Shown here one piece after another: positions 9,646 to 10,044 of a stretch of 64,000 nucleotides of DNA. The notes beneath the pieces are model-generated. The model was not told where the DNA came from, did no database searches, and worked only from the letters and a program-made list of their open reading frames with translations. How positions within the stretch are numbered: position 1 is the stretch's first letter; each line of letters begins with the position of its first letter. This DNA is from Clostridia bacterium (lineage in GTDB: Bacteria; Bacillota; Clostridia; Christensenellales; CAG-138): NCBI GenBank assembly GCA_017524445.1, contig JAFXVP010000072.1, positions 15,183-79,182 on the forward strand. The letters are read 5' to 3'. The translations under genes and the position numbers were made by a program.

Positions 9646-10044
9646 TCAAACGCCGGAGAGTCTTCCCCAGCAGTACGCGATCACCTGTGCGCTGTATCTG
9701 AGCGCCCCGGAGATCCTTTGCTCCGCGCAGTAAACGTCGTCCGTCTCCACGCTGCACCGATAGACGGGCGTCCCGTCCTCATTGAGATACAGAGCGCCCC
9801 GCAGAAGCCTGCGGTTCATCTCCTCGCAAAACGTTCGCGCTTCGTCCGGGTCTGCGCAGCGGAACGGGAACCGTCCGTAAACAAGCAGCATGCCGTCCGA
9901 AACCCGGCAGTCGGTCTCCCACAGCATCGCGCCGCGCTTCGACCGAAACCGCAGCCATCCGTTCTCCTCGCGCCACTCGGCGCCTTCTCTTTCCAGCAGC
10001 GCGCACAGGATGCGCAGCGCCTCCGTATCATCCATCGGTATCAC
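9646..10044 (-). CDS. YbjN / type III secretion chaperone-like small acidic protein
   Basis: 132 aa. Its pattern (short N-terminal helix ALRILCALLEREG, strands WLRFRS...MLWETDCRVSDGMLLVYGRF, then FCEEMNRRLLRGALYLNEDG...) fits the YbjN fold family by eye. No search was run. Confidence 0.45.
   Translation of the reverse strand: MIPMDDTEALRILCALLEREGAEWREENGWLRFRSKRGAMLWETDCRVSDGMLLVYGRFPFRCADPDEARTFCEEMNRRLLRGALYLNEDGTPVYRCSVETDDVYCAEQRISGALRYSAQVIAYCWGRLSGV

Follow-up and report, generated by a model that had tools for sequence, protein, structure and literature searches.

A YbjN-fold protein coupled to one effector class and a second one fixed in the structural operon of a clostridial contractile injection locus

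We analyzed a 64,000-nucleotide stretch of DNA from a Clostridia bacterium (contig JAFXVP010000072.1, positions 15,183 to 79,182; hereafter the window), in which two small genes, A and B, had been proposed from the sequence alone to encode cargo chaperones or loading adaptors. The two genes belong to an extracellular contractile injection system (eCIS) locus, the host being a Clostridia-like bacterium of the gut or rumen, and they play different genetic roles there. B follows a single class of DUF4157 effector, recognizable by an internal region that we call domain X, whereas A is an invariant gene of the structural operon. Both proteins are predicted to adopt the fold shared by the YbjN family and the class I chaperones of type III secretion systems (T3SS). 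We put at roughly even the chance that B is a cargo-specific chaperone or holdase resembling T3SS class IA chaperones and A a machine-encoded partner resembling class IB. Overall, the chaperone/adaptor interpretation is partly supported, and only partly because the A and B genes behave differently.

B closes a plus-strand operon that diverges from the structural operon and encodes a GNAT-like protein followed by five PF13699 (DUF4157/eCIS_core) proteins, here called cargo1 to cargo5; its position at the end of the effector operon is as the original prediction described it. Homologues of B were collected from 15 genome contigs, whose hosts are given as Bacillota (Clostridia, Oscillospiraceae), Gastranaerophilales and Chloroflexi, and from contigs carrying database homologues. 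In every locus collected, a large protein is encoded directly upstream of B. BLAST comparisons revealed that these upstream partners share an internal region with cargo5 even where the remainder has diverged, and an iterated profile of this region, the ~200-aa domain X, detected it in 19 of 19 upstream partners at E <= 1.7e-45. We then counted both features over the DUF4157-type open reading frames with at least 520 nt of downstream sequence in the window and 64 related loci (cited below by L numbers). Domain X and a downstream B gene occurred together in 19 cases and were both absent in 30, and neither was ever found without the other. Like a class IA chaperone, B is thus encoded beside a single cognate effector type (19/19 domain-X cargos, 0/30 others). 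Pfam recognized PF13699 in 8 of 10 distant B partners, the other two being N-terminally cut or ambiguous. In same-lineage loci whose cargo arrays look complete, B is missing wherever domain X is, as in L028, L040 and L061. When structural genes were sought within the available DNA, up to 10 kb on each side, the cargo–B pair stood without sheath or tube genes in L004, L009, L011, L014–L018 and L020; since it so often occurs without machine genes, the pair behaves as a two-gene cassette.

This distribution does not bear out the idea that B serves the N-terminal module shared by the cargos. The first ~170 residues of the five window cargos are 67–79% identical, yet a B gene accompanies only cargo5, and cargo1–4 show neither a YbjN-like partner nor a domain X match. 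Judged by gene content, B is the partner of one cargo class and not of the shared DUF4157 N-terminal module, and cargo5 is its likely client. The C-terminal parts of the cargos are unrelated, except those of cargo1 and cargo2, which share 59% identity over ~480 aa; cargo2 (15720–18047, plus strand) also has a sub-threshold match to PI3/PI4-kinases (E=0.0047, aa 471–557). Elsewhere, an Oscillospiraceae metagenome-assembled genome encodes two tandem B paralogues of 164 and 171 aa after one domain-X cargo (L009, 10001–11047, plus strand), an arrangement that would fit a heterodimeric chaperone or an immunity array. A 157-aa gene that follows a cargo in L001 and L002 was considered as a further YbjN-like partner and rejected, as it consists of low-complexity His/Lys repeats.

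Domain X (aa 374–572 of cargo5) contains two Gly/Ala-rich hydrophobic stretches, which are glycine-zipper-like, and a conserved helical region, IILKxxGxxSGxRxEAF...KRA. Domain X may be membrane-active. In a Kyte–Doolittle scan, cargo5 alone of the five cargos had a hydrophobic segment (aa 455–473), and this segment is more hydrophobic in distant homologues. Domain X is basic in 11 of 14 sequences, against an isoelectric point (pI) of 4.05–4.71 in the B family. It had no credible match in Pfam or the PDB and is rare, with 23 clusters among 1.84 billion representatives; with one exception, full-length domain-X proteins carry the DUF4157 N-terminal domain. A word-indexed search with the domain X profile gave only 4 matches, with low-complexity words dominating.

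Protein A belongs to the machine instead. The contractile-tail cluster fills the left third of the window on the minus strand, and contig L062, whose A and sheath genes are identical to those of the window, continues the operon with Phage_base_V, gp25, two Baseplate_J genes, a gp48-like protein and two unknown proteins. Window and L062 together hold sheath, tube, LysM-tube, spike, gp25 and Baseplate_J genes and no capsid genes, which, with the five DUF4157 (PF13699) cargo genes of the window, identifies an eCIS. Operon order was examined in 41 metagenome loci found via A and in L001–L003, L005 and L008. Wherever the contig reaches, the order g133–g361–g130–A–sheath–tube1–g132–tube2–tube3–tape measure–LysM-tube–VgrG is kept, and A is present in all loci long enough, whatever the cargo set, as a class IB chaperone gene would be. 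The cargo arrays of these loci hold between one and six or more DUF4157 genes; the GNAT gene may be present or missing, and so may domain X with B. Wherever 3.4 kb or more of sequence upstream of A is available, the locus includes at least one DUF4157 gene. Being invariant in the operon and always in the company of DUF4157 cargo, A is a possible general adaptor for the shared N-terminal module. The sheath gene starts 96 nt downstream of A, in keeping with the first description of A as lying just upstream of it. That A and B bracket the cargo array is loosely right, with g130, g361, g133 and the GNAT gene lying between A and the first cargo.

Both A and B are real, conserved genes. Although A was listed as an open reading frame at 9646–10044 on the minus strand with a GTG start at 10044, the true gene most likely spans 9646–10035, because its homologues are almost all 129 aa long and the ATG at 10035 has an AGGTGA ribosome-binding site in front of it. 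In a collection of 5.8 billion proteins, A has 63 homologous clusters with identity down to 54% and B has 64 with identity down to 27%, both families being nearly constant in length. G+C content at third codon positions is 0.78 in A and 0.73 in B and resembles that of the neighbouring genes in both cases. Single-sequence searches of the two proteins against Pfam, NCBIfam, PHROGs and the PDB yielded nothing above threshold, and PDB profile searches with their alignments gave no match. Against the Pfam YbjN family (PF10722), window A reaches 14.3 bits (E=0.049), below the 22-bit gathering cut-off, and window B has no match. Among homologues, counted at E <= 0.1 so that some may lie under Pfam's cut-off, PF10722 matches 16 of 28 for A (best E 5.5e-7) and 13 of 31 for B (best E 2.6e-6). 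Some database homologues of each carry a precomputed PF10722 annotation. Weak TALE-repeat matches of B, over a 34-residue stretch, were rejected as chance. Scanning viral contigs for A and for the VgrG-like protein gave no match.

AlphaFold2 monomer models built on homologue alignments reached a mean predicted local distance difference test score (pLDDT) of 94.8 for A and 89.1 for B, and both show an alpha-beta4-alpha-beta2-alpha layout that can be superposed on YbjN-family crystal structures. In Foldseek searches of the PDB, the top matches of A were YbjN (6vu7; E=5.3e-4, template modelling (TM) score 0.64), SicP, SycN/YscB, AmyR, ExsC and DR_1245. For B, DR_1245 (4h5b; E=1.1e-4, TM 0.63–0.66), YbjN (6vu7; E=1.5e-4), AmyR and PA14_16140 came first, followed by the T3SS chaperones VecA, SycH and CesT. 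The models thus assign A and B, both divergent, to the YbjN branch of the T3SS class-I-chaperone fold (Pfam clan CL0097). The fold had been guessed by eye for both proteins; the PF10722 matches of homologues, the AlphaFold2 models and the Foldseek ranking, with YbjN-family structures first and T3SS class I chaperones after them, confirm it. B is strongly acidic (pI 4.29) and fits the small size and the pI of 4–5 that are typical of class I chaperones (PMC13466201), and A, at 129 aa, is borderline for that class (15–20 kDa, pI 4–5).

B acquires its class IA-like profile from the combination of one client type, an adjacent gene, a pI of 4–5, the fold and a client segment that is both hydrophobic and basic. 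Class I T3SS chaperones keep their effectors soluble and inactive, and SscB shields a transmembrane segment of SseF (PMC13466201). On this basis, and with the precedent of JF50_12605, an accessory protein of another eCIS discussed below, we propose that B would bind domain X of cargo5, hydrophobic, rich in Gly/Ala and for the most part basic, in the cytoplasm of the producer. Bound in this way, cargo5 would remain soluble and inactive and would not enter the membrane of its own producer before it is loaded, and B itself is probably not injected. A would act as a class IB-like partner that most likely keeps an extended client available for assembly or loading. The client could be the disordered leader and DUF4157 N-terminal module common to all cargos, or it could be g130, which is an equally good candidate. 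Such holding would matter especially because no AAA+ unfoldase of the Afp15/Pvc15/Alg15 type was found in the operon or the window.

Several points weigh against assigning chaperone roles to A and B. A is only mildly acidic (pI 4.97 in the window, family median 5.76), so that the initial description of both as small acidic proteins stands fully for B alone. An hhalign profile comparison of A with B detected no similarity, and we do not claim that the two are recent paralogues. No chaperone has been reported for loading in AlgoCIS (preprint 10.64898/2026.05.27.728243), and a loading ATPase could be encoded elsewhere in the genome. The loci retrieved through B are ascertained on B, and only 3 of the 19 X–B pairs (window, L036 and L045) are independent of that retrieval; because these three come from sequences not retrieved via B, the X–B rule is not merely an ascertainment effect. 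Finally, a gene that stands immediately downstream of a cargo and is strictly tied to one toxin-type domain also bears the signature of an immunity gene, and tandem paralogues such as those of L009 are often seen in immunity arrays.

These last points raise the possibility that B is an immunity (antitoxin) protein, which would protect the producer and its sibling cells by neutralizing the domain-X toxin of cargo5 and have no part in loading. As expected of such a protein, B is adjacent to the gene of the putative toxin and co-varies with its domain X; the cargo–B cassette is also found away from structural genes, and cognate immunity genes are known for some eCIS toxins, although most eCIS toxins lack them (PMC8213781), as do cargo1–4, which have no comparable partner. 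Against an antitoxin, however, stand the fold and pI of B, which are those of secretion chaperones, and the 19 loci contain no orphan B that lacks an upstream domain-X cargo. Our literature search also found no paper describing a YbjN-family immunity protein. We consider a purely protective B possible but somewhat unlikely. The chaperone and immunity roles are not mutually exclusive.

The client of A could also be something other than a cargo. In 42 loci, the distant L005 among them, a homologue of the unannotated gene g130 stands at this position upstream of A, and g130 and the 3′ end of g361 share sequence in different frames. The g130 product begins with a charged region, ends in a Pro/Gly-rich one and contains an invariant L..GN.AL helix motif. 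With 16 nt between them, g130 and A are probably translationally coupled, and the conserved pair repeats the client-then-chaperone order of cargo5 and B. A could accordingly be imagined as a dedicated chaperone of g130, small and with such terminal regions, or of another structural component (sheath, tube or baseplate), with no role for the DUF4157 cargos. On the other hand, g130 has no match in Pfam or the PDB, and the g132 product, which matches phrog_508, already seems to fill the role of tape-measure chaperone. A fold search of BFVD with A returned no match at E <= 1e-3, so that no viral predicted structure, and no phage tail-assembly factor among them, resembles A. We consider A as a chaperone of g130 or a structural component, and not of the cargos, possible but somewhat unlikely.

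A regulatory role for A is less probable. In this scenario, A would be a partner-switching regulator like ExsC, AmyR/YbjN or PA14_16140 and would, together with g133 and g361, control the divergent operons without touching cargo. Regulators of this kind (ExsC of the ExsC–ExsE pair, AmyR, PA14_16140) are indeed among the top structural matches of A, which is also less acidic than classical chaperones and lies among the first four genes of the operon, near the receiver-like g133 and the divergent promoter region. The receiver match of g133 is below threshold, however; no DNA-binding domain was detected in g133, g361, g130 or A, and within their common operon A is closely tied to both g130 and the sheath gene. 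The g133 product additionally matches phrog_8810 (E=5e-6), and g361 had no match in Pfam, NCBIfam, PHROG or the PDB. We regard the regulator as unlikely.

One further explanation would deprive both proteins of any eCIS role and treat them as general-purpose YbjN stress proteins that lie near the locus by chance. Within its clan, YbjN is the most widespread subfamily, and many bacteria that have no secretion system possess it (PMC13466201). Yet every locus long enough shows the A or B homologue in this exact eCIS or cargo context, and both families are small, with the 63 and 64 clusters mentioned above, which makes a chance neighbourhood highly improbable.

The class IB-like reading of A gains its interest from what the structural operon lacks. 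None of the operon proteins, whether scanned here or covered by precomputed annotation, and no protein elsewhere in the 64-kb window matched an AAA-family Pfam model, and no operon protein carries a Walker A motif. The only ATPase-type domains in the window, those of two ABC exporters and a histidine-kinase-like domain, lie outside the operon. An Afp15-type AAA+ ATPase was thus not found in operon or window. Such ATPases are present in >85% of eCIS loci (Chen et al., PMC6899500), and an eCIS structural operon without one is unusual. The complete structural operon (window 452–11826, minus strand; L062 1–21098) has no recognizable Afp16-like terminator either. Loading in AlgoCIS requires the ATPase Alg15 and a disordered N-terminal leader, with DUF4157 being dispensable (preprint 10.64898/2026.05.27.728243). 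It is conceivable, though quite unlikely in our estimation, that this lineage dropped the AAA+ loading ATPase, with A serving as a general loader (of the leader/DUF4157 module or through a g130 adaptor) and B as an additional holdase for one class of membrane-active cargo. If this were true, contractile injection systems would have an ATP-independent cargo-loading route, and a YbjN-family protein would have its first defined cellular role as a secretion chaperone outside T3SS.

Table 1 Positions of the genes and other features of the eCIS locus in the window.
Feature	Position	Strand	Remarks
VgrG-related protein	452-1549	minus	
LysM-tube protein	1568-2296	minus	
Presumed tape measure, 1126 aa	2311-5691	minus	
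Three gp19-like tube proteins	7277-7756, 6117-6626, 5682-6110	minus	
g132, tail-assembly-chaperone-like	6827-7225	minus	matches phrog_508 tail assembly chaperone family
Sheath	7798-9549	minus	Phage_sheath_1 E=3.7e-22, Phage_sheath_1C E=6.9e-19; directly downstream of A
Protein A, 129 aa, predicted YbjN / T3SS class-I-chaperone fold	9646-10035	minus	invariant structural-operon gene
g130, unannotated, ~124 aa	10052-10426	minus	stop 16 nt before the ATG of A
g361, 361 aa, second structural-operon gene	10338-11423	minus	conserved synteny
g133, first structural-operon gene	11425-11826	minus	receiver-domain similarity, PF00072 E=7e-4, below cut-off
GNAT acetyltransferase-like gene	11881-12864	plus	head of cargo operon; PF00583 E=1.2e-6
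cargo1 to cargo4, DUF4157 cargos without domain X	12919-20330	plus	PF13699 in each
cargo5, 868 aa, DUF4157 (eCIS_core)	20378-22984	plus	PF13699 E=6.2e-17; pI 9.47
Domain X (cargo5 aa 374-572), unannotated, ~200 aa	21497-22093	plus	presence predicts B
Protein B, 156 aa, strongly acidic, predicted YbjN fold	23052-23522	plus	last gene of cargo operon
Terminator-like hairpin after B	23601-23626	plus	consensus scan

Other features of the locus vary among its relatives. The GNAT gene is found in most related loci and is absent from L036, L040, L045 and L048. The hairpin after B is weak evidence for a terminator, as the hairpin count is no higher than in shuffled sequence. The presumed tape-measure protein, of 1126 aa in the window, measures ~1180, ~1504 or 1905–1950 aa elsewhere (L001 14336–20062, L003 14421–20273; also L059/L061), a spread that predicts particles of very different length and cargo capacity. 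In L063 (6039–7187, minus strand) and L064 (3080–4228, minus strand), a 382-aa gene of opposite orientation, probably a mobile-element insertion, splits the tape-measure gene; these two loci have the identical VgrG-related protein and the same operon gene set, and the tape measure is intact in L062 and the window. A PDB search with a 593-aa distal operon protein was empty. Beyond B, 24135–25274 (plus strand) encodes a very basic 379-aa protein (pI 10.7) with one hydrophobic segment and without a Pfam match. Its homologues recur at the distal end of cargo arrays in L006, L007, L008, L028, L045 and L061, and it may be part of the locus, perhaps acting in release or lysis. The region 37274–63943 has no bearing on the findings for A and B and encodes a 2968-aa nonribosomal peptide synthetase ending in a reductase, with a phosphopantetheinyl transferase next to it, a 2941-aa dockerin-domain protein, two ABC exporters, of which one carries a C39 peptidase domain, and, within a low-GC stretch (GC 0.45), a TPR/DUF6273 protein.

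How cargo is selected, prevented from doing harm and loaded in eCIS matters for the engineering of protein-delivery particles. The known answers to the loading question are an N-terminal leader with an AAA+ ATPase, in the Photorhabdus virulence cassette (PVC) and AlgoCIS, and one uncharacterized putative chaperone, in the metamorphosis-associated contractile structure (MAC). To these the present locus adds a rule that is valid in every locus examined, namely that an acidic YbjN-fold protein comes after each domain-X cargo, and a YbjN-fold gene that is fixed in the structural operon of a lineage without a visible ATPase. If the class IA- and IB-like roles are correct, a tangible function in client binding would fall to the large and poorly understood YbjN family; should B turn out to be an immunity protein and A a regulator, the result would be useful annotation without a new mechanism.

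The best structural matches of A and B are members of the YbjN family (PF10722), represented by E. coli YbjN (6vu7), Erwinia AmyR (5fr7), Deinococcus DR_1245 (4h5b) and PA14_16140 (8q8o). These proteins are similar in size to A and B, and B is similarly acidic. The known members are stress or exopolysaccharide regulators or, in one case, the partner of the DNA-repair protein DdrB. Our literature search found no paper that mentions both "YbjN" and "contractile injection", and no YbjN member reported in a contractile injection system.

Among T3SS chaperones, CesT does for Tir, and SscB for SseF, what B would do for cargo5 before loading, and JF50_12605 of the MAC is proposed to do so for Mif1. 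The gene of a class IA chaperone stands next to that of its one effector, and class IB genes belong to the machine operon (PMC13466201). B shares with the class IA proteins SicP, SycE and SscB the fold, a single client, an adjacent gene, a pI of 4–5 and a hydrophobic client segment, and A shares with the class IB proteins CesT and Spa15 the fold and a place in the machine operon. Unlike the T3SS setting, however, neither the operon nor the window contains a T3SS, a sorting platform or a secretion ATPase, and the presumed client region of B is internal (aa 374–572), whereas the chaperone-binding domain of T3SS effectors is N-terminal. Because T3SS genes are lacking and the machine is a contractile tail, A and B are not T3SS chaperones; they share the fold with them and possibly the logic.

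Within eCIS, the closest likeness to the proposed B is JF50_12605 of the MAC of Pseudoalteromonas luteoviolacea, a putative chaperone that binds Mif1 and itself, is absent from the particle and is needed for efficient loading of Mif1 (PMC6748791), a membrane-disrupting cargo (PMC11796346). Both would be cargo-specific eCIS accessory proteins, and the two are likened by role, not by sequence or fold; Mif1, unlike cargo5, lacks DUF4157. The PVC and AlgoCIS (Pvc15 and Alg15) share the cargo architecture seen here, with a disordered leader, DUF4157 and a variable C-terminal domain, but their loading uses an ATPase and no reported chaperone, whereas the present locus has YbjN-fold proteins and no detectable ATPase in operon or window. 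The eCIS toxin–immunity pairs, such as the RES-like EAT5 with its Xre-like antitoxin, likewise place a small gene beside the toxin and keep the pairing across taxa (PMC8213781), and their fold family differs from that of B. A chaperone function of DUF4157 itself has been suggested (Danov et al., PMC11297309), and a separate chaperone for DUF4157 cargo has not been described in searchable papers. Compared with all of these systems, what would be new here is an effector–partner logic in eCIS that operates via a YbjN-fold protein.

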